Of a DNA stretch of 64,000 nt, positions 13,861-56,864 are shown piece by piece. The DNA is from Alphaproteobacteria bacterium (GTDB taxonomy: Bacteria; Pseudomonadota; Alphaproteobacteria; SHVZ01). The position numbers and the translations under genes are program-made. The notes beneath the pieces were generated by a model. It saw only the letters and a program-made list of their open reading frames with translations, was not told the DNA's origin and did not search any database. Where the stretch lies: contig JAYRJL010000004.1 in the NCBI GenBank assembly GCA_041906305.1, positions 264,334 to 328,333 on the forward strand, read 5' to 3'. Every line of letters starts with the position of its first letter. Within the stretch, counting starts at the first letter, position 1.

Positions 13861-16517
13861 AAGGCGAAGCGGGAAATCGGGACCTCCCGGCCCGAGGGCA
13901 GGACCAGCGTGGCGGTCCGGAAACCTGTCGCGCGGAGCGTGACGCCGCCGCGCTCCGCCAGCAGCCGCGGTCCCCCAGCGCCGAAAGCGTATTCCTGCAA
14001 GGTCCCCTGGAAGAGCCCTCTCGCGTAGGTCCCGCTCGCGACGTACCAGGCGGAACTGCCGTCGTCTCGATAGAGATGCGTGGACATGAGCAGCACCCCG
14101 TTCCGGATCTCGATGAAGTAGCCGGATCCCGGCTCGGCCGCGTTCCACCACCAGCCCGTCTCGGGCTCCAGCAATTCTTCATAGGCGCCCGTGACGTCGA
14201 GCCGCGCATGGAGTCGTGCCGTTCGCGGATCGACAACCGGGACACCCGACGAGGCGATCGCCCTCTCCAGGGACGCGACGTGCGTCGGCCCGGCGGTCTT
14301 GAGAGCCGCGATCGCCCCGGCGACGTGCGGCGCCGCCATCGACGTGCCGCGCAAGGCCTCGAAGCCGCCGCCGGGCATCGAGGAGACGATGCCGTCGCCC
14401 GGGGCCACGATCATCGGCAGGCGCCACGCGTTCGAGAAGGCGGCGAGCACATCGAGAGCGGTGGTTGCGCCGACGCGGATCGCGCTGGAAACGCAGGCCG
14501 GCACGGCGACGGCGTTGGTTTGCTTCCCATTGCCGGCGGCGACGACCGACGCCACGCCGATTGCCCGAAGCTGATCGAAGATCGGCTTGTACGGCGTGTC
14601 GTCGCAGTAGCCCGCGTAGGCGTCGCCGCCGAGGCTCAGGTTGACGGCGACGACGTTGAGCCGCTGCGCGTTGTCGCGGACGTATTCGAGACCCCTGATG
14701 ATGTCGGAGTCGGTCGCGCCGATGCAGGGGCCGAGGCAATAGAGCATGGGGTAGTGCCGGAAGACCTGAACGCTCATCAGGCTCGCTTCGGGAGCGACGC
14801 CCGAGAAAGCCTCGCCCCTTCCAGCGACGATGCCCGCGACATGCGTACCGTGATAGCAGGTGGCCTCCGCATCGGCGCAGGGTCTGCCGGCGCCGCGGCC
14901 GAACATCGCGTCGGCGCCGTTCGGGCAGGCCGTCATGATTCCGTGGCTGCGGATCGAGGTGCTGAAGCACGCCTCATCGATCACGCGCCCGCCGAGAAAG
15001 GGATGCGTCGCGTCGATGCCCGTATCCAGCACCGCGACGGTCTGGCCTGCGCCCGTATGTCCCCTGGACCAGACATAGGGCGCCCGTATCCTCGGAACGG
15101 AAGCCGCAAGTAAGGTGGACCGTCTGGCATCCTCATGCACTGCCGCGACCGAGGGATCGGCGAGAAGCGCCTCGAGCCCGGCCGGCGTGACGTCGGCGAC
15201 GACCAGCGGGAGACTTCCGAAGGCGGACACGATCGCGCTTCCCGCTGCGGAGAGCGACGAAGCAAGCCGACCACCGTCCGATGCGGTTCCGTGGAGCCTG
15301 ACGATGACCCGCTGGCTTCCTTTCGACAGGACGAGATCCTTGAGCTCCCTCAACCTGACCGCTTCGGCCTTGATGGGGGCGGGCAGGGTGCCGGGGTCGT
15401 CGGAAGATGCGCTGCCACCGACTGGGTATCGCTCGATGGCAAGAGTTTTCCCACCGGACCGCGCCAGCGTGCCGCGAGCCGACGACGCGAAGGCGAGGGA
15501 GATCGTTCCGGCGGAATCGCGTTCGGCGGGCGGCTTCGAGCCGCCTGCATATTCCGTCAGGGTCGTCGTGAGACCGAAGCCGTCCCAGGAGCCGGACCCC
15601 AGGTACCAGACGGCGCTGCCGTCGGCGCGATAGTCGTAGGCGGCGATCATCAGCCGGTCGTCGCGGAGTTCGATCGAATAGGCGCGGCCGGGCTCGCTCG
15701 GCGCCCACCACCAGCCGCTTTCCGGATCGGCGGACGGCGGCATGAATCGCGCCGTGCAGGCGACATCTCCGCCGATGACGATCCTCGCCTCTGCCGTGCG
15801 ACCGCTCGCGCTGCAGGCGCCGCCCCATCCGGCGAAGACCCATCCGGTTCCAGGGACTGCGCGCAGCGGCACCGACGCGTCCTGGTAGACCTCGATCGTG
15901 CACGTGCCGGAGGCGCAGCGCGGGCCATTGCGGCCCAAGATGACCTCGCCGGCGCCGATGCCCGCGAGCGTCATGGTCAGGCGGCGCTTGATCAGCACCG
16001 GTTCGTGAGCCGGCACCTGGACCGTCCGGGGCGTCAGCTGCAGCTGGCCATGAGTGAGGCTGAAGGCGCCGTTCGGATCGAAGCCGGACTGGAATGCGCC
16101 GAAGTCGAAGGCGACCGTCACCGGCTCATGGACGTTGCCGCAGATCCGGCTGCCGGCGGCATCGACGACCTGCTCGACGATGTAGACCCTGTTGTTCTGG
16201 CGGACAGCCCAGCCGCCGCAGACGCGGGCGCCGATAGTCTTCGTCGGGATCATCCGTATCATGAGCACCGAGCGGCTGGGATCTTCGGCGCACGGCACGC
16301 GCCAGAGAACCGCATCGGATTCGGAGGGGGAGAGGCTCTGTTCGGAAAACCTGGCTGACGGGGCCGGGGGCGGCGCCGGAAATCGCTCGGGCAGACAGCC
16401 GGCAAGGTAAGCCGATGCGTTCGGAAGGCTCGGTTCGGCCCACGCGCCCGCGGGAACCAACTTCGCCAGGGTCAGGGCGATCGCCGCCAGCCAAACCGAC
16501 CGGAATCCAGGGCGCAT
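13857..16517 (-). CDS. secreted S8 family serine peptidase (subtilase) with InlB-B-repeat-like N-domain and two flanking 'GWWW' repeat domains
   Basis: Signal peptide MRPGFRSVWLAAIALTLAKLVPAGAWA (ATG 16517; the track start at 16577 is TTG). Catalytic triad motifs VLDTGID, HGTHVAG, GTSMAAPHVAG. Two ~100-aa repeats ESGWWWAPSEPGRAYSIE... (nt ~15414-15725) and ETGWWWNAAEPGSGYFIE... (nt 13860-14168). Confidence 0.85.
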   Translation of the reverse strand: MRPGFRSVWLAAIALTLAKLVPAGAWAEPSLPNASAYLAGCLPERFPAPPPAPSARFSEQSLSPSESDAVLWRVPCAEDPSRSVLMIRMIPTKTIGARVCGGWAVRQNNRVYIVEQVVDAAGSRICGNVHEPVTVAFDFGAFQSGFDPNGAFSLTHGQLQLTPRTVQVPAHEPVLIKRRLTMTLAGIGAGEVILGRNGPRCASGTCTIEVYQDASVPLRAVPGTGWVFAGWGGACSASGRTAEARIVIGGDVACTARFMPPSADPESGWWWAPSEPGRAYSIELRDDRLMIAAYDYRADGSAVWYLGSGSWDGFGLTTTLTEYAGGSKPPAERDSAGTISLAFASSARGTLARSGGKTLAIERYPVGGSASSDDPGTLPAPIKAEAVRLRELKDLVLSKGSQRVIVRLHGTASDGGRLASSLSAAGSAIVSAFGSLPLVVADVTPAGLEALLADPSVAAVHEDARRSTLLAASVPRIRAPYVWSRGHTGAGQTVAVLDTGIDATHPFLGGRVIDEACFSTSIRSHGIMTACPNGADAMFGRGAGRPCADAEATCYHGTHVAGIVAGRGEAFSGVAPEASLMSVQVFRHYPMLYCLGPCIGATDSDIIRGLEYVRDNAQRLNVVAVNLSLGGDAYAGYCDDTPYKPIFDQLRAIGVASVVAAGNGKQTNAVAVPACVSSAIRVGATTALDVLAAFSNAWRLPMIVAPGDGIVSSMPGGGFEALRGTSMAAPHVAGAIAALKTAGPTHVASLERAIASSGVPVVDPRTARLHARLDVTGAYEELLEPETGWWWNAAEPGSGYFIEIRNGVLLMSTHLYRDDGSSAWYVASGTYARGLFQGTLQEYAFGAGGPRLLAERGGVTLRATGFRTATLVLPSGREVPISRFAF

Positions 16518-16684
16518 GATGAGGACCGGATGATGAGAGAGATTCGGAACAATAAGAGAACAAACGCAACCTTTCAAATAATGATACGACTATCATACTA
16601 TTTTCCTGTGGGATGCGGGCTGGCTCGCCTTGACTCCCCCGGTCGCCGTGCCATGACTCCGGCCCTTTTCAAGCGGGGATCTGC

Positions 16685-21052: not shown

Positions 21053-21644
21053 CGCGCGCCTCGGCGAGCTCGGCCTCGAGCGTCTTGATGCGATCGGTGA
21101 GGGAGTCGATCGCCGCCATCACCTCCTCGGCCGGGAACATCTGAGGGATGTGCTGCGGACAGTTTCGGCTCCACGCAGCGATCGTGAACAGGATCGCCTG
21201 CTCGGGCGTCGCCTCGTAGCCCTCGGGGAAGAGGCGCGCGATCGTCTCCTTGTCGTCGACGACGCGCGCCGTGCCCCAGATCTTCACGCGCCGCCGGTTG
21301 ACGTAGTCCATCAGGAACAGGAAGGCGCGCGGGTTGTCGGCGAGATTGCCGGTCGTCAGGTACTGGCGATTGCCGGTGAAGTCGGCGAAGCCGAGCGTCT
21401 TCTCGTCGATCACCTTGAGGAAGCCCTTCGGTCCGCCGCGATGCTGGATGTAGGGCTGTCCGTCCGGCGTCGCGGTGCCGAGATAGAACGACCTGACCTC
21501 GCCCAGGAACTGCGCGAGGTCTGGCGTCACGGTTGTCGGCCAGCCGCCCTTCTGCTCCTGCCGCGCGTACGCTGCGCGCGAGCCCCGCTCGGCCTGGATC
21601 GCCTTGACCCTCGGGGTGAAGGCCACGTCTGAGGACGGGTTCAT
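21003..21644 (-). CDS. pyridoxamine 5'-phosphate oxidase family (general stress protein 26-like) FMN-binding protein
   Basis: 213 aa with a PNPOx-like split-barrel. Divergent from the LysR regulator. Its 3' end overlaps mltG by 50 nt. Confidence 0.7.
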   Translation of the reverse strand: MNPSSDVAFTPRVKAIQAERGSRAAYARQEQKGGWPTTVTPDLAQFLGEVRSFYLGTATPDGQPYIQHRGGPKGFLKVIDEKTLGFADFTGNRQYLTTGNLADNPRAFLFLMDYVNRRRVKIWGTARVVDDKETIARLFPEGYEATPEQAILFTIAAWSRNCPQHIPQMFPAEEVMAAIDSLTDRIKTLEAELAEARATPPEAPAAAADRAPA

Positions 21645-21693
21645 TGGGACCTCGCTTTATTGGTCCCTGAAGATCGGTCGGAACTCAGCTCAA

Positions 21694-21723
21694 GATAATC
21701 ATCGGAATTCGAGTATGATTATC
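21694..21723. promoter_or_regulatory. LysR-type operator: perfect 9-bp inverted repeat gataatcat-N12-atgattatc (contains T-N11-A)
   Basis: In the 99-bp divergent intergenic region between the LysR and PNPOx genes. A second related half-site gggataatcgg abuts the LysR ATG. Confidence 0.6.
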
Positions 21724-21743
21724 CCGAAATTAGGGATAATCGG

Positions 21744-22661
21744 ATGGACCGCATCGAGGCCATGGGCTTGTTCGTCGCGATCGCGGATGCCGGCAGCCTC
21801 GCCGCTGCCGGCCGCCGGTTGCGCCAGCCGCTGCAGACAGTGAGCCGGAAGCTGCAGGCGCTCGAGGATCACCTCGGCGTCCGCCTGCTGACGCGGACGA
21901 CGCGACGCCTCGTGCTGACAGAAGAAGGGCGCGACTATCTCGACGCCTGCCGGCGCGTGCTCGCCGACATCGAGGAGGCCGAGCGCCGCGTCGCCGGCAA
22001 GCATGCCGATCCCAAAGGGCAGCTCGCGATCACCGCGCCGGTGGTGTTCGGGCGCCTGCATGTGCTGCCCGCGGTCACAGAGTTCCTCGGGACATATCCT
22101 CAGGTAGCGGCGCGTCTCGTCCTGGTCGATCGCGTGATCGATCTGGTGGAGGAGGGGATCGACGCGGCGGTGAGGATCGGTCCGCTGCCGGACTCGTCGC
22201 TGATCGCGACCCGCCTCGGTGGCCTTCGCCGCGTCGTCTGCGCGAGCCCCGCCTATCTGGAGCGGCATGGCGCGCCCGAGACGCTCGCCGATCTGGCCCG
22301 ACACGACTGCATCACGTTCGCCGGCATCTCCTCGCCGGCGCATTGGAAGTTCGACGGTATCGGGACGGCCCGGATCCGCTCGCGCCTCGTGGTGACGACG
22401 GCGGAAGCCGCGGTCGACGCGGCGGTTGCCGGCCTCGGCGTCACACGGCTGCTCACCTATCAGGTCGCCGACGCGTTGGCTCTGGGACGGCTCCGCCTGA
22501 TCCTGGCGTCTTTCGAGACACCGGGCGTCCCGGTCAACCTGGTCTCGGTCGAGGGGCGGCAGGCGCCGGCGCGCGTCCGCGCCTTTCTCGACTTCGCCGT
22601 GCCACGGATCCGCCAGCGGCTCACGGCACTCGGCGAGGCGAACTCCGCGTTCCGAAGCTAG
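21744..22661 (+). CDS. LysR family transcriptional regulator
   Basis: N-terminal wHTH (MGLFVAIADAGSLAAAGRRL...QTVSRKLQALEDHLGVRLL) plus LysR substrate-binding domain. Confidence 0.9.
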   Translation: MDRIEAMGLFVAIADAGSLAAAGRRLRQPLQTVSRKLQALEDHLGVRLLTRTTRRLVLTEEGRDYLDACRRVLADIEEAERRVAGKHADPKGQLAITAPVVFGRLHVLPAVTEFLGTYPQVAARLVLVDRVIDLVEEGIDAAVRIGPLPDSSLIATRLGGLRRVVCASPAYLERHGAPETLADLARHDCITFAGISSPAHWKFDGIGTARIRSRLVVTTAEAAVDAAVAGLGVTRLLTYQVADALALGRLRLILASFETPGVPVNLVSVEGRQAPARVRAFLDFAVPRIRQRLTALGEANSAFRS

Positions 22662-23827
22662 GAGGCGGCTGGCGTTCCCTTCGGCAGGTCGATCATTTCG
22701 ATGCGGCCGTTGCGGCCGGCGAGCGCGAGGCCGCCGGCCTTGAGCTTGAGCGCGGCCTCGCCGAAGACCTCGCGTCGCCATCCATGCAGGGCAGGGATGG
22801 CGGCGAGGTCGGTCGCGGCCAGCGCTTCGATGTCGGCCGACGACGCGACGAGTTTCTGTGCGACCTCGAAGTCCTCGCAGCGCAGCTTCAGCAGGACCTT
22901 CAGGAGATCGACGAGCGGGATGCGGCCCGGCGGCGGCTCGAAGCGGGTCTCGTCCTCCATCTTCGGCGGCGTGCGGTGGCGCCCACGCTCGACCGCGGCC
23001 ATGACCTCGCCGCCGAGCTTCCCTTCGGCGAAGCCCTGCGGCACGAGGCGCACACGCGAGAGCTCGGCCAGCGTCTTAGGGCCCTGATGCGCGATGTCGA
23101 GCAGCGCCTCGTCCTTCAGGATGCGCTGGCGCGGCACGTCGCGGCGCTGGGCCTCGAGCTCGCGCCAGGCGGCGAGCTCGGCCAGGAGAGCCAGCACCTT
23201 CGGCTTCGCGGTCTTGGGCTTGAGCCGGCGCCAGGCGTCGTCGGGGTTGGGCTGATACGTCGAGATGTTGGTCAGCAGCGCCCATTCCTCGGCGAGCCAG
23301 TCGCGCCGCCCGGTCGCCTCCAGCCGCTTCTCCATCTTCTCGTAGATCGTGCAGAGCGGCACGACGTCGGCGAGCGCGTAGGTGAGCTGGCGGTCGGTCA
23401 GCGGCCGGTGGCTCCAGTCGGAGAAGCGCGAGGACTTGTCGAGGCGCTGGCCGGTGAGCTTGGCCACCAGCGTCTCGTAGCTGACCGAGTCGCCGAAGCC
23501 GCAGACCATCGCCGCGACCTGCGTGTCGAACAGCGGGGCGGGCACCTGTCCCGTCTTGTGAACGAAGATCTCGATGTCCTGGCGGGCGGCGTGGAAGACC
23601 TTGAGCACCTTCGGGTTCGCCAGCAGCTCGTAGAGCGGGTCGAGCGAGATCCCCTCGGCCATCGGGTCGATCGCGACGGCCTCGTCATGCGAAGCGACCT
23701 GGACCAGGCACAGGATCGGGTAGTAGGTGCGCTCGCGAAGGAACTCGGTGTCGATCGCGATATAGGGGTGGGTCGCGAGCCGCTGGCAGAGGGCGGCCAG
23801 CGCGTCGGTCGTGGTGATAGGCTGCAT
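22658..23827 (-). CDS. rnd: ribonuclease D
   Basis: DEDDy 3'-5' exonuclease motifs (IAIDTEF ... YALADV) plus HRDC region. The start MQPITTTDALAAL at 23827 avoids overlap with the TetR gene. Confidence 0.85.
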   Translation of the reverse strand: MQPITTTDALAALCQRLATHPYIAIDTEFLRERTYYPILCLVQVASHDEAVAIDPMAEGISLDPLYELLANPKVLKVFHAARQDIEIFVHKTGQVPAPLFDTQVAAMVCGFGDSVSYETLVAKLTGQRLDKSSRFSDWSHRPLTDRQLTYALADVVPLCTIYEKMEKRLEATGRRDWLAEEWALLTNISTYQPNPDDAWRRLKPKTAKPKVLALLAELAAWRELEAQRRDVPRQRILKDEALLDIAHQGPKTLAELSRVRLVPQGFAEGKLGGEVMAAVERGRHRTPPKMEDETRFEPPPGRIPLVDLLKVLLKLRCEDFEVAQKLVASSADIEALAATDLAAIPALHGWRREVFGEAALKLKAGGLALAGRNGRIEMIDLPKGTPAAS

Positions 23828-23891
23828 CTCGCCGCTCACTATAGGCGATGTACGCCAATGTCGAGCCCCGGCACCGCCGGGTTCGGCGAAT

Positions 23892-24431
23892 TCAGGTCCC
23901 GAAGCGCTGCAGGAGCCGGTCGACCAGCCGGAAGGTATCGCCATCCTCGGGCCGCAGCCGGCGGTCGATCAGGAGCATCGCCAGTCCATGGATGTAGGCC
24001 CAGGCGGCCGAGGCCGAGTCTGCGTCGCCTCCGAGTGCCTGGCGCAGGAAGCCGAAAGCCGCCTGGGAGGCCCCGTCGAGGTCGGGATGTGCCGCGAAGC
24101 TTTCGATCGTGCCGCAGAACATCAGCCGGTAGAGGTGGGGGTGGGCGAGCGCGAAGCCGACATAGGCACGGCCAACCGTTCGGGACTCGCCCCCCGACGC
24201 TTCGGCCGCGCGGATGCAGACGTCCCGAAGCAGCGAGAAGCCGCCGGTCGCGATCGCGGCCAGCAGAGACTCCTTGTCCGGAAAGTGCGCGTAAGGCGCC
24301 CCCGGGGACACCCCGATCTCACGGGCGAGCGCCCGCAGCGAAAGCGCGGCCGGACCGCGCTCCTCGAGCTGCTGAGTCGCGGCGTAGAGAAGGACATGGC
24401 GGAGGTCGCCATGGTGATAGGTGTCCGGCAC
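23892..24431 (-). CDS. TetR/AcrR family transcriptional regulator
   Basis: N-terminal HTH (LSLRALAREIGVSPGAPYAHF). GTG start at 24431. Confidence 0.85.
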   Translation of the reverse strand: MPDTYHHGDLRHVLLYAATQQLEERGPAALSLRALAREIGVSPGAPYAHFPDKESLLAAIATGGFSLLRDVCIRAAEASGGESRTVGRAYVGFALAHPHLYRLMFCGTIESFAAHPDLDGASQAAFGFLRQALGGDADSASAAWAYIHGLAMLLIDRRLRPEDGDTFRLVDRLLQRFGT

Positions 24432-24440
24432 GAGGTCAGT

Positions 24441-24479
24441 CTAATCAATGATTAGATAGAGTCAATTAATCAGTGATCA
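24441..24479. promoter_or_regulatory. two TetR-operator-like palindromes (taatca-a-tgatta at 24442-24454; taatca-g-tgatca at 24467-24479)
   Basis: Perfect and near-perfect 13-bp inverted repeats, 10 and 35 bp upstream of the TetR start, inside an AT-rich island. Confidence 0.55.
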
Positions 24480-24821
24480 GATTAGATTGGCGGCCCGCTG
24501 CGGCTCGCAGGTGAAGTCGACTATCGCCGATGGAAAATATCATCTTAAATGAGCAAAATTGCATGCATCATGCTGAAAAAATTAAATAATATGATTTCAA
24601 GAAGTGGAGATCGTGGTTTCACAGAAAAGAGGAGCGATTCCCCGCTTTGCCGGCATGGTCGCACTTTCAGTGGTTCACAGGCGCGCAAAAACAGGCCGCG
24701 CCAAACCCCGTAGGACGAAACGCGTTCCGGAGATCTCCATAGATTTCAAAGGAACTGTTGCCAGATCGCCACAATCCTCCTATTTTGTTCCCACTCGATT
24801 CGTCGACCCAGGGGGACCCCG

Positions 24822-25685
24822 ATGCGCAGGTTCGTGCCGTTGATGGCCGTAACGCTGCTGGGCGGTTGCGGCGCAATCCCGCCGGCTCTCGGGTTGATGT
24901 CTTACGCCGCCGACGGCGTCTCCTTCCTGGCCAGCGGCAGGACCCTGTCGGATCACGCGCTTTCAGCCGTCGCCGACCAGGACTGCAAGCTTTTCCGCAT
25001 GGCCCAGAACCTCGAGGTCTGCACGGACTGGGGGACGGAACCCAAGATCGCCGCTGCGCGGCCGATGCGTTTCGCCTCCGACCGGGACGATCCGGAGAGC
25101 TGGGGCGACGATACGGGTGCCGTCCAGGTCGCGCTCGGGCCGGTGCCGAAGCCGGCCGAAGCCGGCGAGCCCATGGCGCTGCCGGCGCACCTTGCCGATG
25201 TCGCCAAGGCCCTGCCGGGCGTCGCCAAGGCGGAAACCGCGCCGGTCCTCGCGACCGCTCTGATCGCACCGGCCGCGCCGCCGGCTCCGCCGGCCGTGGC
25301 CGCGGTGCCGCAGCCGAGCAGGCTGGTGATGACCGCCCTCGTTCCGTCCGCGCCGGTCGCTGCGCTGCCGTCGCCGAAGACCGATGTCTCAGCCGTGGTC
25401 CGCGCCGACGACGCCCAGGCCCGTCGCGATGCCGTCCGCGCCGCCTATGAGGGCCGCTACCTCATGGTCCTCGGCAGCTTCAAGGGACCGGAGATGGCCG
25501 GTCGCTTGGCGAAGCTTCACGCTGGCGCCAAGGTCGTGAAGGTCGACGTGCATGGCGAGGCCTACTACCGGGTGGTGATCGAGCCGGAGAAGGGCGCCAG
25601 GTTCGCCTCCAAGATGAGCGACAAGCCGTGGCTGATGCCGGCTGCGGGCGTCCAGCTCGCCAGCCTTCAGGGAACGCTGCGCTAG
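24822..25685 (+). CDS. SPOR domain-containing lipoprotein
   Basis: Lipobox LLGGC after a signal peptide, Pro/Ala-rich linker, and a C-terminal SPOR peptidoglycan-binding domain (YLMVLGSFKGPEMAGRLAKL...YYRVVIEP). Confidence 0.7.
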   Translation: MRRFVPLMAVTLLGGCGAIPPALGLMSYAADGVSFLASGRTLSDHALSAVADQDCKLFRMAQNLEVCTDWGTEPKIAAARPMRFASDRDDPESWGDDTGAVQVALGPVPKPAEAGEPMALPAHLADVAKALPGVAKAETAPVLATALIAPAAPPAPPAVAAVPQPSRLVMTALVPSAPVAALPSPKTDVSAVVRADDAQARRDAVRAAYEGRYLMVLGSFKGPEMAGRLAKLHAGAKVVKVDVHGEAYYRVVIEPEKGARFASKMSDKPWLMPAAGVQLASLQGTLR

Positions 25686-40499: not shown

Positions 40500-40580
40500 T
40501 GCTTTCTTTTCCCCCTGCCTTCGGTAAACTGCGCCTTCGAGCCGTCTCGAACCGGACGTGATCCCCAAGGCCCATAAGCC

Positions 40581-40946
40581 ATGCCTAAGACCGTCATGAT
40601 CGTCGAAGACAATGAGCTCAACATGAAGCTCTTCAACGATCTGCTCGAGGCCAACGGCTACAATATCATTCAAACGCGCGATGGGCTGGAGGCTCTGAAG
40701 CTCGCCCGCCAGCACAAGCCCGACCTGATCCTGATGGACATCCAGCTGCCCGAGGTCTCCGGCCTGGAAGTCACCAAGTGGATCAAGGAAGACGACAACC
40801 TCAAATCCATCCCGATCATCGCGGTCACCGCCTTCGCGATGAAAGGCGACGAGGAGAAGATCCGCGAAGGCGGATGCGAGGCCTACATCGCCAAGCCGAT
40901 CTCCGTCGCGACATTCCTGCAGACGGTCCAGCGCTTCCTCCAGTAG
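40581..40946 (+). CDS. divK: single-domain response regulator DivK
   Basis: 121-aa stand-alone receiver ([18 protein letters not shown] ... [10 protein letters not shown]), immediately followed by pleD. Confidence 0.85.
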
Positions 40947-44009: not shown

Positions 44010-45569
44010 TTAAGGCGTGAGCGCGACCTGTCCCTGGCGCGAGGCGAGGGCAAAAAGGCCACTCTCCTCAAGCAGTTGCTGGGCGACGCGCACCTCGAAA
44101 TCGGACTCGGCCGACTTCGTCGGGCAGGCCTTGCGGGCCGCCTCGGCTCCTGCGACTTCGCCCTGCCGGATGAAGGTGGCGCGCTGGGCATAGGCCTGGC
44201 CGATCTCCGGCGCATTTCGGCGCAGGTCGGCGATCAGCGCAGCAGGATCGCCGGCATGGTGGCTGGTGCAGACGCTCGGCAGCACGCCGATCTTGTGCCA
44301 GGCCTGACCCGAGGGGCCCTGCATCCGCGCCCAGGTGATGGTCATCTCGCCGTCGTTCGGCAGGCGCATGACCGTCTGGACGCTGCCCTTGCCGTAGGAG
44401 GTCGAGCCGATCACCACCGCACGGTGGTTGTCCTGCAGCGCCGCCGCGACGATCTCGGCCGCGGAAGCGGATCCGCCGTTGATCAGGACGACCATCGGCA
44501 GGCCATGGGTGATGTCGCCGTCGGTCGCGCGATAGCTCTGCTTCGCCCGCGGATGGCGGCCCTCGGTCGCGAGAATGGTTCCCTCGTTGAGGAAGAGGTC
44601 GGAGACGTAGACCGCCTGGTCGAGAAGCCCGCCGGGATTTCCGCGCAGGTCCAGGATCAGCCCCTTGAGGCCGGGGCCGTGGTTCTTCATCGCGGTATCG
44701 ACGGCTTCCTCGACCTGCTTGGCCGTCCGCTGATTGAACCCGGTGACACGGATATGGGCCGCTCCGCCCTCGTGCTTGACCAGGACGGTCGCGGGCACGA
44801 TGCGCGAGCGCTTGAGCGCCATGTCGAACTGCTTGCCGTCCCGTTCGATCACCAGCTTGATGGTCGAGTCGATCGGGCCGCGCAGCTTGTCCAGTACGTC
44901 CGGCGACGGCATGCCGGACAGCGTGGCGCCGTCGGCCGCGACGATGCGGTCGCCGTCGCGAAGGCCGGCGCGGGAGGCCGGGGTCTCCGGCATGACCGAG
45001 GAGACGGCGACGCCGGTCTCGTCGATCTTGAGGGTCACGCCGATGCCGCCGAAGCCCTCGCGGCTGGCCCGGGACTGGCGCGCCGCATCGGCCGAGGAGT
45101 AGCGCGAGAACGCGTCGAGGTCGGCGAGCTCGGCCTCGAACACCGCTTTGTAAATCGCCTCCGAGGAGGCGTCCTTGAGCGGCGCGAAATGGAGGCGGCT
45201 CTCGGCCACGACGTCGGAGGTGAAGCGGGCCCAGCGGTTCGGGTCGTCCCCGGTCGGGAGCGCGATCGGCCGGGTGTCCGTCTTGCCGTAGGTCAGCCGG
45301 ATCTGGCGGTCGTCGGCGGAGAAGGCGAAGGCGGGGTCGAGGGTCTTCAGACCGTTCAGCCCATGCAGGGCCAGCTTCCGCATGTCGACGCGGTCGATGT
45401 AGTAGTCGGACAGACCGTCATATCCGACGCCGAAGACGTCGCGGGCACGGTCGAGGCCGGCGTTCTGGGGAACCTGATCGGACGAGGAGGCGCAGCCGGC
45501 GCTGAGGAGGAGGGCGAGCACGGTGCCGGCGCGGCCGGCGCTTTGAAGGCGGTGCGTAGTCAGTTTCAT
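44010..45569 (-). CDS. ctpA: S41 family C-terminal processing peptidase (CtpA/Prc-like) lipoprotein
   Basis: Lipobox LLSAGCAS, a PDZ domain (GIGVTLKIDETGVAVSSVMPETPASRAGLRDGDRIVA), and the catalytic Ser/Lys region (GGSASAAE ... K). Start MKLTTHRLQ at 45569. Confidence 0.85.
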   Translation of the reverse strand: MKLTTHRLQSAGRAGTVLALLLSAGCASSSDQVPQNAGLDRARDVFGVGYDGLSDYYIDRVDMRKLALHGLNGLKTLDPAFAFSADDRQIRLTYGKTDTRPIALPTGDDPNRWARFTSDVVAESRLHFAPLKDASSEAIYKAVFEAELADLDAFSRYSSADAARQSRASREGFGGIGVTLKIDETGVAVSSVMPETPASRAGLRDGDRIVAADGATLSGMPSPDVLDKLRGPIDSTIKLVIERDGKQFDMALKRSRIVPATVLVKHEGGAAHIRVTGFNQRTAKQVEEAVDTAMKNHGPGLKGLILDLRGNPGGLLDQAVYVSDLFLNEGTILATEGRHPRAKQSYRATDGDITHGLPMVVLINGGSASAAEIVAAALQDNHRAVVIGSTSYGKGSVQTVMRLPNDGEMTITWARMQGPSGQAWHKIGVLPSVCTSHHAGDPAALIADLRRNAPEIGQAYAQRATFIRQGEVAGAEAARKACPTKSAESDFEVRVAQQLLEESGLFALASRQGQVALTP

Positions 45570-45711
45570 CCGAAGGGCGTCCGATCTACTCAAGAGGGCC
45601 ATCGGGGATAAGCATGGAATGTGCCGATTTGCGGTGCAAAAATCTAGTAAGTTGCTTCCAAAATCGTGAAGCTTCGGAACTTTTCGGTGATTTTCTGTAA
45701 GTCACGGACCG

Positions 45712-46278
45712 ATGCCTGACCTCCCGAGCATTGCCGAATTGCGCGAGCGAGTCGCGAGCGCGGTATTGGGGGAAGTTCTGACCTACTGGTCGAGCTTCTA
45801 TGATCGCGGCGTGCTTCCCGCCTTCGACGACGTCGAACCGTGGCAGATCAAGAAGGCCCTTCCTTATGTCTGGATCTGGCGGCGGGAGGTCGAGGCGGAC
45901 CGTTTTTTCTGCCGGGTCTGCGGGGAGCATGTGAACTACATCTTCGGCCGCAATCTCTCCGGCAAGTCCTGCGAGGAGGCGATGCCGTCTGAGATGGCGG
46001 CCGAGGCACAGGCGCGCTGGCGGCGCCTGATCGACGACCGGCTGGCCCATCACCTGACCGGCTGCGTCTACAGCTACGTCGGTCAGCGCGTGATGGGCGA
46101 GCGCCTGATCCTGCCTCTGGCCCCCTCGAGGAACGATCGTGGCGGCGTGCTGGGCGTGACGGACGCCTCCCAGCCGACGCTCCGCCTCGACTCGCCGGTC
46201 GACCCGTCGAAGTTCATCGGCATCGGGGCCGGCGAGCGACACGACTACGACGCCGATCCGGCCCGCGCCAATGACTGA
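45712..46278 (+). CDS. PAS_5 (PF07310-like) alphaproteobacterial PAS-fold protein, paralog 1
   Basis: 188 aa; motif YW..F...GVLPAFDDVEPWQIKKALPYVWIW ... DRFFCRVCGEHVN. Confidence 0.6.
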   Translation: MPDLPSIAELRERVASAVLGEVLTYWSSFYDRGVLPAFDDVEPWQIKKALPYVWIWRREVEADRFFCRVCGEHVNYIFGRNLSGKSCEEAMPSEMAAEAQARWRRLIDDRLAHHLTGCVYSYVGQRVMGERLILPLAPSRNDRGGVLGVTDASQPTLRLDSPVDPSKFIGIGAGERHDYDADPARAND

Positions 46279-53537: not shown

Positions 53538-54830
53538 TCAGCTTCCTCTCGCGTCGTGGACGACGCGGCCGGAGGTTACCGTGACGAGAACCTTGCCTTC
53601 GACCGGGCGTCCGTCGAAAGGCGAGTTCTTGGATTTGGAGCGGAAGCTGTCGACGTCGATCCGGTGGGCGCGCTCCGGATCGAAGAGGACCAGGTCGGCG
53701 CGGCGTCCCTTCGCCATCCGACCGGTCTCGAGGCCCAGTAGTGCGGCGGGGGCCGAGGTAATCTTCTGCAACGCCAATTGCAGTTTCAGGTGATTGTTGT
53801 GAAATAACTCTAAAGTCAGCGGTAATAACGTTTCCAGCCCGAGGATGCCCGAGGCCGCCTGGGCGAACGGTAGTCTTTTCGAGTCGGCATCATGGGGGGC
53901 ATGGTCGGAGGCGATGGCATCGATAGTACCGTCGGTAAGCCCCTCGACGATGGCGCGGCGATCGTCTTCGGAACGGAGCGGGGGTGACAGCTTGGCGAAG
54001 GTCCGGTAGTCGCCGACGGCGGTCTCGTTGAGCGCGAAGTAGGGCGGCGCGGTATCGCAAGTCACTGATAAGCCGCGCTTCTTCGCCGCCCGTATGACCT
54101 CGACGCCGGCACGGGTGGAGAGATGGGCGGCGTGGTAGCGCCCACCCGTGAGTTCGACCAGGCGCATGTCGCGATCGAGCATGATGGCCTCGGCAGCGGC
54201 CGGAATACCCGAGAGACCGAGGCGGGTGGCGATCTCGCCTTCGTTCATCCCCGCATCCGAGGTCAGGGCCGGTTCTTCCGCATGGTTGAGGATAACTTGG
54301 CCGAATGTCTTGGCATACGAGAGGGCCCGGCGCATGACCAGGGCCGAGGAAACGGTCTGGGTCCCGTCCGTGAAGCCGACCGCGCCGGCCGCCGCCATGA
54401 GGCCGATCTCGGTCAGCTCCTTGCCGGCGAGGCCCTTGGTGAGGGCGCCATAGGTCCGAATGTCGACCAGACCGACCGCCTTGGCCCGGCGCTCGACGAA
54501 CTCGACCAGGGACGGTTCGTCGACCGGCGGCCGCGTGTTCGGGAGCGCGACCATGGTCCCGACACCGCCGGCGGCGGCGGCCTGGCTCGCCGTGTCGAAG
54601 TTCTCCTTGTGCTCCTCGCCCGGCTCGCGGAGCTGGACCCGCATGTCGACGAGGGCCGGGGCCAGGACCGTGCCCTTGCCGTCGATGACGTAGGCATCCT
54701 CGGGGATCCGGTCGAACAGCTTGGGCCCGAGATCGGCGATTTCGCCGTTGACGACAAGGAGTTCGCCCTTCTCGTCGCGGCCGCTCGCGGGGTCGATCAG
54801 GCGGACGTTGGTGAAGGCGATCTTGGTCAC
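53538..54830 (-). CDS. pyrC: dihydroorotase-like protein, probably non-catalytic PyrC' (HxH zinc motif replaced)
   Basis: 430-aa DHOase-family protein immediately downstream of pyrB. The canonical D-x-H-x-H zinc-ligand motif reads [11 protein letters not shown] here (His replaced by Met/Gln). A downstream SDHAPH Asp is retained. Confidence 0.75.
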
Positions 54831-55786: not shown

Positions 55787-55952
55787 TAAAGGCCCTGCTT
55801 ACACCTTCGCGCCGGGCGTGGATAGCGCCGCGCGCATGCTGCATCTGCGAAGACACGAACTACCTTCCCAGCGTGGGCTGTGGATTAAATGAGCCCGGAT
55901 TTGCTGGGTTTGGCGACATTTGATGGGGATGAATGCCAAAGCCTGTAGCCGC

Positions 55953-56864
55953 TCAAGACTGATACATCAAGATCAAGGGCAAGCTCAAAACCGATATAAC
56001 AATTTGAAACGTGAGAATCGCCGCCATCAGGCGGTGGTCGCCGCCCATTGCCCGCGCCATGACATAAGAGGATGGCGAGGCGGGAAGCGCGTTGAAGAGA
56101 GTGCAGATCGCCGTCGCGACCGGATCGAGCCCGAGAACCCGGCAGAAGGCGAAGGTGAGGGCCGGAAGCACGAAAAGCTTGCCCAGGCAGGCGACCCCAA
56201 GCGGGATTTTGGCCTCCCGGAGCATCGAGAAGTCGAGGCTGGATCCCACCGAGAGCAGCGCCAGCGGCAGCGACGCCTGACCGAGGAGCTTCAGCGTGTC
56301 CGCGACCGGCATCGGCAGCCGGATCGGGCTCAGGCTAAGGAGAATCCCGGCGAGGCAGCCCAGAATGATTGGATTGAGGATAATTTGCCGGAGCGTTTGC
56401 CCCCAGCTTGGGACTCCCGATCCGTACCGGCTGAGCAGGATCACGGCGATCAGGTTGACCAGGGGAATGGCGATCGCGACCGTCAGCGAGAAGAGCGACA
56501 GGCCGGTCGTGCCCCAGAGAGCGCCGGCCGCAGCGAAGCCGATATAGATGTTCGGCCGGAGGCAGCCCTGGACCACCGACGTCAGCTGCGGCGCCGGCAG
56601 CCGGAGCGCATGGGTGATTGCGAGCGCCAGGATCGTCATCGCCAGCAGCGACCCGACCGAGGCGATCGCGATTCCCGTCACGGGAAGCTTGCTCCAGTCG
56701 ATGGTCCCGAGGCTGGTGGTGAGCAACGCCGGGAATAGGACCCAGTAGACCACCCGCTCGGCCCCGAGCCAGAACGGTTCGGGCAGCCAGGGCTGCCGTC
56801 GGAGCCACCAGCCGATCAGGATCAGCGCGAAGATCGGGCCGATCGCCCCGAGGGCGGCGGTCAT
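55953..56864 (-). CDS. AEC family transporter (second copy in window)
   Basis: 303-aa polytopic membrane protein of the auxin efflux carrier type. Confidence 0.8.

Follow-up and report, generated by a model that had tools for sequence, protein, structure and literature searches.

In the 64-kb stretch of DNA analysed here (the window in what follows), whose host genome is GC-rich and probably alphaproteobacterial, a gap of 390 bp at positions 24432-24821 separates two divergently transcribed genes. These are tetR on the minus strand (23892..24431), which encodes a regulator of 179 amino acids from a GTG start at 24431, and, on the plus strand (24822..25685), a gene for a putative lipoprotein of 287 amino acids. 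Downstream of tetR lies rnd, the gene for RNase D (22658..23827, minus strand). From the tetR side outwards, the gap holds a pair of palindromes set about a predicted tetR promoter, then a fast-evolving spacer of about 220 bp (~24484..24703) which includes the most AT-rich DNA of the window, and lastly a conserved block adjoining the lipoprotein gene. It is the nature of these parts, and of the two palindromes in particular, that is considered below.

The name tetR, given to the gene in an earlier note made from the sequence, holds on comparison with Pfam, where the protein matches TetR_N, with its helix-turn-helix, at the N-terminus (E = 2.6e-13; 49.9 bits, cut-off 24) and TetR_C_33 at the C-terminus (E = 2.5e-14; 54.2 bits, cut-off 26.8). 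Upstream of its start codon lie two putative operators. The proximal one, O1 (TCTAATCAaTGATTAGA, 24440..24456), is a perfect 8-1-8 palindrome which covers the spacer and the -10 element of the predicted promoter, while the distal one, O2 (ATTAATCAgTGATCAGAT, 24465..24482), is an imperfect palindrome with three mismatches to the 17-mer of O1, and is offset from it by 25 bp, start to start. The motif TCTAATCA-N-TGATTAGA occurs in just two copies in the window, both of them in the gap. Moreover, when up to three mismatches are allowed, O1 and O2 are the only matches in the 64 kb, with an expected number of 0.01 and with two or more matches in 0/100 shuffles. The tetR promoter itself (24438..24465, minus strand) was predicted by a promoter scan with a 9/12 match, and consists of a -35 element TTGACT (24465..24460), a 16-nt spacer and a -10 element TAGACT (24443..24438). 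The -10 element is held in the right arm of O1, O2 abuts the -35 element, and TTGAC stands between the palindromes. In the window only 6 nt separate TAGACT from the GTG start, into which no Shine-Dalgarno sequence fits.

Relatives of the locus were compared with the window, and are denoted below by L-numbers (related loci or contigs). A protein search returned a tight group of TetR orthologues, comprising eight clusters at 79-92% identity, with the next matches below 50%; the contigs of these eight clusters, together with three loci from metagenome-assembled genomes (MAGs), gave 11 distinct upstream sequences whose TetR proteins are 79-100% identical. The 50 bp before the tetR start align without gaps in 11/11 loci, and further upstream the sequences are unalignable. 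The footprint has the consensus aTCT.A.CA.tGaTtA.TTGAC...atcTaAtCa..GATTAGA.T, and the ATG or GTG start comes 6-7 nt after it. Within it TTGAC and GATTAGA, the latter being the right arm of O1, are invariant and TAGAyT is conserved, the distance of 6-7 nt between the -10 element and the start is maintained in all 11 loci, and the position of the start codon is kept as either GTG or ATG. Each orthologous locus contains exactly two sites at the 25-bp offset, apart from L012 and L013, in which O2 is more degenerate and only one site is seen at the threshold of three mismatches. Outside these site pairs the operator motif was not found in 68 kb of related DNA. The earlier note had taken the palindromes for TetR operators, and had named their conservation as a test of this reading; the test is clearly passed, as both sites and their 25-bp spacing are kept upstream of the orthologous tetR genes. 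Indeed, because O1 and O2 are unique in the window, overlap the predicted promoter and are kept with orthologous tetR, it is strongly supported that they are the autoregulatory operators of a TetR-type repressor, to which the repressor would bind. Likewise, because the -10 element stands only 6-7 nt from the start codon and leaves no room for a Shine-Dalgarno sequence, the tetR mRNA is probably leaderless, with its transcription start placed by this geometry. On leaderless TetR systems the literature offered nothing relevant.

Two variants of the operator region deserve mention. The outer arm of O2 carries a 5-bp tandem duplication, CAGAT TAGAT (24478..24487), which in the alignment is found only in the window and in L002, the other nine rows being without it; the duplication creates an outward-facing hexamer TAGATT at 24483-24488. 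In L026, a MAG contig, a deletion has removed the operators together with roughly 75 codons from the start of tetR, and what is left of the gene is frameshifted (L026:4900-5300); no sites are found, and the lipoprotein gene and rnd are intact. At least one lineage can therefore do without the TetR protein.

Beyond the tight orthologues, TetR_C_33 relatives at 36-48% identity (L017, L018, L020, L025) have two palindromes of the form ATCTT(T/G)ACA.TGT(A/C)AAGAT, about 110 bp upstream. A metagenome scan for ATCTAATCANNGATTAGA gave, among the matches listed, almost exclusively chance occurrences in low-GC contigs, with at least five in contigs of more than 0.55 GC; two of these, L126:5344 and L148:1224, adjoin a TetR gene, and lie 85-105 bp upstream of proteins 33-39% identical to the one described here, each facing a divergent gene. 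Taken over the distant TetR_C_33 relatives (33-48% identity), the palindrome pairs are of the type ATCTT.ACA.TGT.AAGAT or ATCTAATCA..GATTAGAT, and the divergent partners differ, including an ABC-2 transporter, an RPE65 oxygenase, a FAD monooxygenase and a small secreted protein. This suggests that an operator frame ATCT...AGAT is common to the TetR_C_33 family.

The base composition of the gap departs strongly from that of its surroundings. The mean GC content of the window is 67.6%, with a standard deviation of 5.1% across 100-bp windows of the whole 64 kb, and the 100-bp minimum of the entire 64 kb is 30%, at 24529-24628, some 7 standard deviations under the mean. At the 200-bp scale the gap is the sole region of the window below 50% GC, with a minimum of 39% at 24440-24639. 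The AT-rich island which the earlier note had described upstream of tetR is, in other words, real and extreme, being the window's 100-bp minimum, though the accompanying figure of 30-35% GC over about 200 bp was overstated, as the value is 39% across 200 bp and reaches 30% in a core of about 100 bp only. The AT-rich DNA falls into two parts, one the operator stretch at 24436-24488 and the other the core at 24528-24600 (100-bp GC minimum 0.30 at 24529), with a GC-rich stretch of about 40 bp (24489-24527) between them. Seven or eight further patches below 50% GC occur in the window, mostly between divergent genes, and the island of the gap is an extreme member of this common class, not unique in kind. 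Among these other patches are those at 16485-16650, 21622-21789, 40567-40685, 45557-45744, 53733-53860 and 55874-56039, of which the one at 21622-21789 has a PNPOx-like gene on one side and a LysR regulator on the other.

What the earlier note missed is that, at the position of the AT-rich spacer, several relatives have a divergent gene for a membrane protein. The gene, which encodes a hydrophobic, multi-helix protein of 171-174 amino acids, is present in L003-L006, L010-L011 and L016, and probably in L035 (examples are L003:3413-3937, L010:3423-3938 and L016:115-468); it starts 8-9 nt past O2, and the lipoprotein gene follows downstream of it. The copy in L016 appears truncated, beside a short repeated GGGGTCAA..TTCAA..GCCGAT motif. 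The protein has no family match above threshold in Pfam or NCBIfam, the sub-threshold ones being DUF3995 (0.06), DoxX_2 (0.2) and DUF3397 (0.03). In the window and in L002, L007-9, L014, L030, L033 and L012-13 the gene is lacking, and a spacer of about 190-230 bp is found instead. Where the membrane gene is present, the layout is that of the classical tetR/tetA pair, with two palindromic operators between the divergent genes; as a rule, TetR regulators act on divergent neighbours closer than 200 bp (PMC3511530). A divergent gene within that distance is present in the relatives L003-6, L010-11 and L016, about 60 bp from tetR; the window is without one, the neighbour of tetR starting 390 bp away and having its conserved promoter about 270 bp past O2. 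By analogy, the membrane protein is the presumptive target of this clade of TetR regulators.

In a neighbour-joining tree of TetR the basal positions are taken by loci with the membrane gene, and L010 groups with a locus that lacks it as its sister. Because of both features, loss of the gene is a simpler account than gain, and would have happened probably at least twice. A search for a relic by tblastn, against the window and the intergenic segments and on both strands, returned noise only (best E 0.14-0.4 in a 2.7-kb database), and no homologue of the membrane protein was found anywhere in the 64-kb window.

The spacer that stands in place of this gene evolves rapidly. Compared with the nearest relative, L002, the DNA of tetR is 98.9% identical, with changes at third positions only and an identical protein (the TetR protein is likewise identical in L001 and L002). 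Third positions have diverged from L002 by 3% in tetR and by 5% in the lipoprotein gene, whereas the spacer has diverged by 15% at 24489-24527 and by 16% in the AT core. When compared with all other relatives, the identity of the spacer is 0.50-0.54, a random level (shuffled mean 0.49), while third positions of tetR are 59-67% identical. Moreover, signs of an RNA product are lacking, as Rfam gave no match at gathering score in the whole window and only snoRNA noise (E ~8-10) in a relaxed scan of the gap, and as the predicted fold of the spacer is on neither strand better than that of shuffled controls (z = -0.45 on the plus strand, +0.20 on the minus strand). Since bacterial mutation is typically AT-biased, the spacer is best explained as unconstrained DNA, the AT-richness of which would come from relaxed selection under such mutation.

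Three small open reading frames (ORFs) in the gap have been considered. One of 79 amino acids (24604-24843), which had been thought spurious-looking at the outset, exists but is indeed spurious, and with it one of 54 amino acids, as judged from GC contents at third codon positions (GC3) of about 0.5 (0.53 for the longer frame) as against 0.84-0.93 in real genes, from the lack of Pfam matches, and from a 1-bp indel in L002, which breaks them. The third, a 19-residue ORF (MENIILNEQNCMHHAEKIK, 24530-24589, plus strand), lies in the AT core, and its start, length and stop are kept in L002 despite 11 substitutions. It is probably also due to chance: 8/19 residues differ in L002, no Shine-Dalgarno sequence precedes it, and it is absent from L030.

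At its far end the gap becomes conserved once more. Conservation of the ~120 bp that lead up to the lipoprotein ATG (~24704..24821) extends to every locus, whether or not it has the membrane gene; in L010, and more loosely in L003, this block separates the membrane gene from the lipoprotein gene. A promoter scan, together with the conservation, points within it to TTGCCA (24758-24763)-N17-TATTTT (24781-24786) on the plus strand, which lies 35 nt before the ATG, and to a Shine-Dalgarno sequence AGGGGGA (24810-24816) 5 nt before it. The predicted promoter is flanked by inverted copies of GACGAA(A/T)CG, at 24714-24722 (plus strand) and 24796-24804 (minus strand), 82 bp apart; CGAATCG is found unchanged in 7 loci, 5 of which also have the upstream copy. 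The pair could be the binding sites of another regulator, or a chance occurrence.

The product of the gene so preceded had been described as a SPOR lipoprotein. The lipoprotein part of this description is supported by a lipobox within MRRFVPLMAVTLLGGC (L12-L13-G14-G15-C16; LLGGC, residues 12-16), invariant in 6 orthologues, the signal peptide being judged by eye. For the SPOR part the support is weak. Pfam gives a C-terminal match below its 21-bit cut-off (E = 0.44, 11.3 bits), with the L003 orthologue matching at the same position (E = 0.68), and a PDB profile search gave no SPOR match. An AlphaFold2 model from the single sequence is of low confidence, with a mean predicted local distance difference test (pLDDT) score of 60 and 70-82 in the core; the top Foldseek matches of that model are the SPOR domains of DamX (probability 0.94) and RlpA (0.99, template-modelling score 0.58 by target, root-mean-square deviation 2.7 Å), at E values of only 0.04-0.28. 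A SPOR lipoprotein is as such plausible but not established.

On the other side of tetR, rnd is assigned by NCBIfam (TIGR01388 rnd, 5.9e-120), and follows tetR directly in every locus. Its longest ORF (22658-23944, minus strand, 428 amino acids) shares 53 bp with the end of tetR and is an over-extension, comparison with relatives placing the true start 39 codons downstream at the ATG at 23827. The gene has a TATAGT of its own at 23843..23838 (minus strand), and CCTATAGTG is invariant 9-10 nt before the rnd ATG in the 11 loci, lying inside the 3' end of tetR where the latter is longer (the 192-amino-acid TetR variants of L003, L016 and L035). From its position, CCTATAGTG looks like the -10 element of rnd, giving a nearly leaderless mRNA. 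A tetR-rnd operon, as a function for which tetR might have been retained, is weakened by this TATAGT and by L026, which keeps rnd without the tetR promoter; rnd would therefore be independent of the tetR promoter. The TetR of the window looks like a repressor that controls only itself at this locus.

Taking these observations together, we consider it likely that the gap is made up of three unrelated pieces, namely the tetR promoter with its operators (24438-24482), a decayed spacer, and the lipoprotein block, following the loss of the membrane gene. On such a reading one TetR dimer, bound at O1, would mask the -10 element and the transcription start, and another, bound at O2, would adjoin the -35 element; in this way TetR would silence its own transcript, which is probably leaderless, until some ligand released the repressor. 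In the basal relatives the same operator pair would also face the divergent membrane gene; in the lineage of the window this gene would have been lost, with the spacer now occupying its place. The lipoprotein gene, for its part, would be driven by its own conserved promoter and Shine-Dalgarno sequence, independently of TetR.

Several points weigh against this reading. Initiation at GTG on a leaderless mRNA is normally weak or inefficient. The tree is a neighbour-joining one of a single short protein, so the membrane gene may instead have been gained in some lineages. The spacers of several relatives are also AT-enriched (100-bp minimum 0.29-0.42), which might point to a loose demand on composition, for instance for DNA bending or for silencer binding. 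In a GC-rich genome third codon positions are not free of constraint either, and a faster spacer does not prove neutrality. Lastly, tetR and its operators are under purifying selection after the loss of the target, so that the repressor should keep some role. This continued conservation suggests unlinked targets beyond a 64-kb window, and is the ground for an alternative in which the TetR, though orphaned, is selected for a kept or new role, e.g. in gating a leftover outward promoter at O2 (TAGATT) through the spacer into the lipoprotein gene, or in controlling unlinked genes. This alternative we regard as unlikely. If it were true, the spacer would be a young and still-evolving TetR-controlled leader, not junk.

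The other explanations concern the AT island itself. The earlier note had seen in it a sigma-70 promoter, TTGCAT (24559-24564)-N18-TAAATA (24583-24588) on the plus strand, which would drive the lipoprotein gene through a leader of ~230 nt or give rise to a small transcript. The motif is present as written, TAAATA and the 18-nt spacing persist in L002, and AT-rich DNA melts easily. It lies, however, in the fastest-evolving part of the gap, where its -35 element becomes TGGCCT in L002 and has no alignable counterpart in the other relatives. A sigma-70 scan that asked for an A at position 2 and a T at position 6 of the -10 element reported two sites, and this was not one of them, the terminal T being absent; neither RNA structure nor an Rfam signal accompanies the proposed transcript. 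Moreover, the conserved TTGCCA-N17-TATTTT is much closer to the lipoprotein gene, and makes a much better candidate for its promoter. The earlier proposal is, on this evidence, improbable, and TTGCAT-N18-TAAATA is probably a chance match in AT-rich DNA. What could act without any conserved sequence is a compositional element, whether bent DNA or, in line with the earlier note, a site of MucR/H-NS-like nucleation, which would modulate the promoter of tetR, of the lipoprotein gene, or of both. The island has the lowest GC content in 64 kb, A-tracts recur near 24535, 24556 and 24578 (~21-22 bp apart), several relatives have AT-enriched spacers though these are unalignable, and MucR prefers AT-rich DNA in alphaproteobacteria (PMC9410896, PMC10746212, PMC5693944). 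We nevertheless regard it as unlikely, seeing that the AT enrichment varies widely among relatives (minimum 0.29-0.42) and is not seen in those that have the membrane gene, and that most of the window's intergenic regions between divergent genes contain patches of low GC, which are hence nonspecific. The spacer might, finally, be foreign or mobile DNA, left behind by an insertion that took the place of the membrane gene. A composition sharply off that of the genome, the 5-bp duplication at the O2 boundary and the absence of any membrane-gene relic speak for such an event, but neither terminal inverted repeats nor repeat copies were found, there is no transposase or other coding potential, and the segment differs in every lineage; an insertion is very improbable.

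With regard to known systems, the closest likeness is to the Tn10-type TetR/tetO arrangement, in which a TetR-family gene likewise has beside it two palindromic operators in tandem, which overlap the promoter of that gene; in the relatives, as in Tn10, the operators also face a divergent membrane-protein gene, here about 60 bp away. The half-site TCTAATCA resembles the tetO half-site, TCTATCA. The differences are, however, considerable. The C-terminal domain is TetR_C_33 and not the ligand domain of TetR(B), and the protein scores 22.7 bits against the NCBIfam TetR equivalog, the cut-off of which is 265 bits; the divergent protein of the relatives, with its 171-174 amino acids and no family match, is not an MFS pump, and its gene is missing in the window; the operators are spaced by 25 bp, and the tetR mRNA is predicted to be leaderless. 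Among solved structures the best sequence matches are the TetR_C_33 (formerly 'WHG') regulators of PDB entries 3on2 (E = 2.3e-18) and 3cjd, which share the Pfam architecture, and neither operator nor ligand is recorded in the entry data examined. The gap is also like the AT-rich targets of MucR/H-NS in being an AT-rich patch in a GC-rich genome, the preferred substrate of MucR (PMC9410896), though the likeness is compositional only, and unlike them in being a non-coding spacer of ~100-200 bp, where those are horizontally acquired gene clusters. The overall picture is one of ordinary TetR autoregulation, to which is added an apparently lost divergent target, replaced by fast-decaying AT-rich DNA.

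For the family, the analysis yields an operator consensus that is well supported, aTCTAATCA-N-TGATTAGAt, which flanks TTGAC as a pair of sites at 25-bp spacing; it applies to one clade among the uncharacterised TetR_C_33 regulators, and is usable for regulon prediction. For the genome, an extreme AT island within GC-rich DNA appears to have arisen from gene loss and relaxed constraint, and not as a regulatory or foreign element, which calls for caution in scans that single out low-GC islands.

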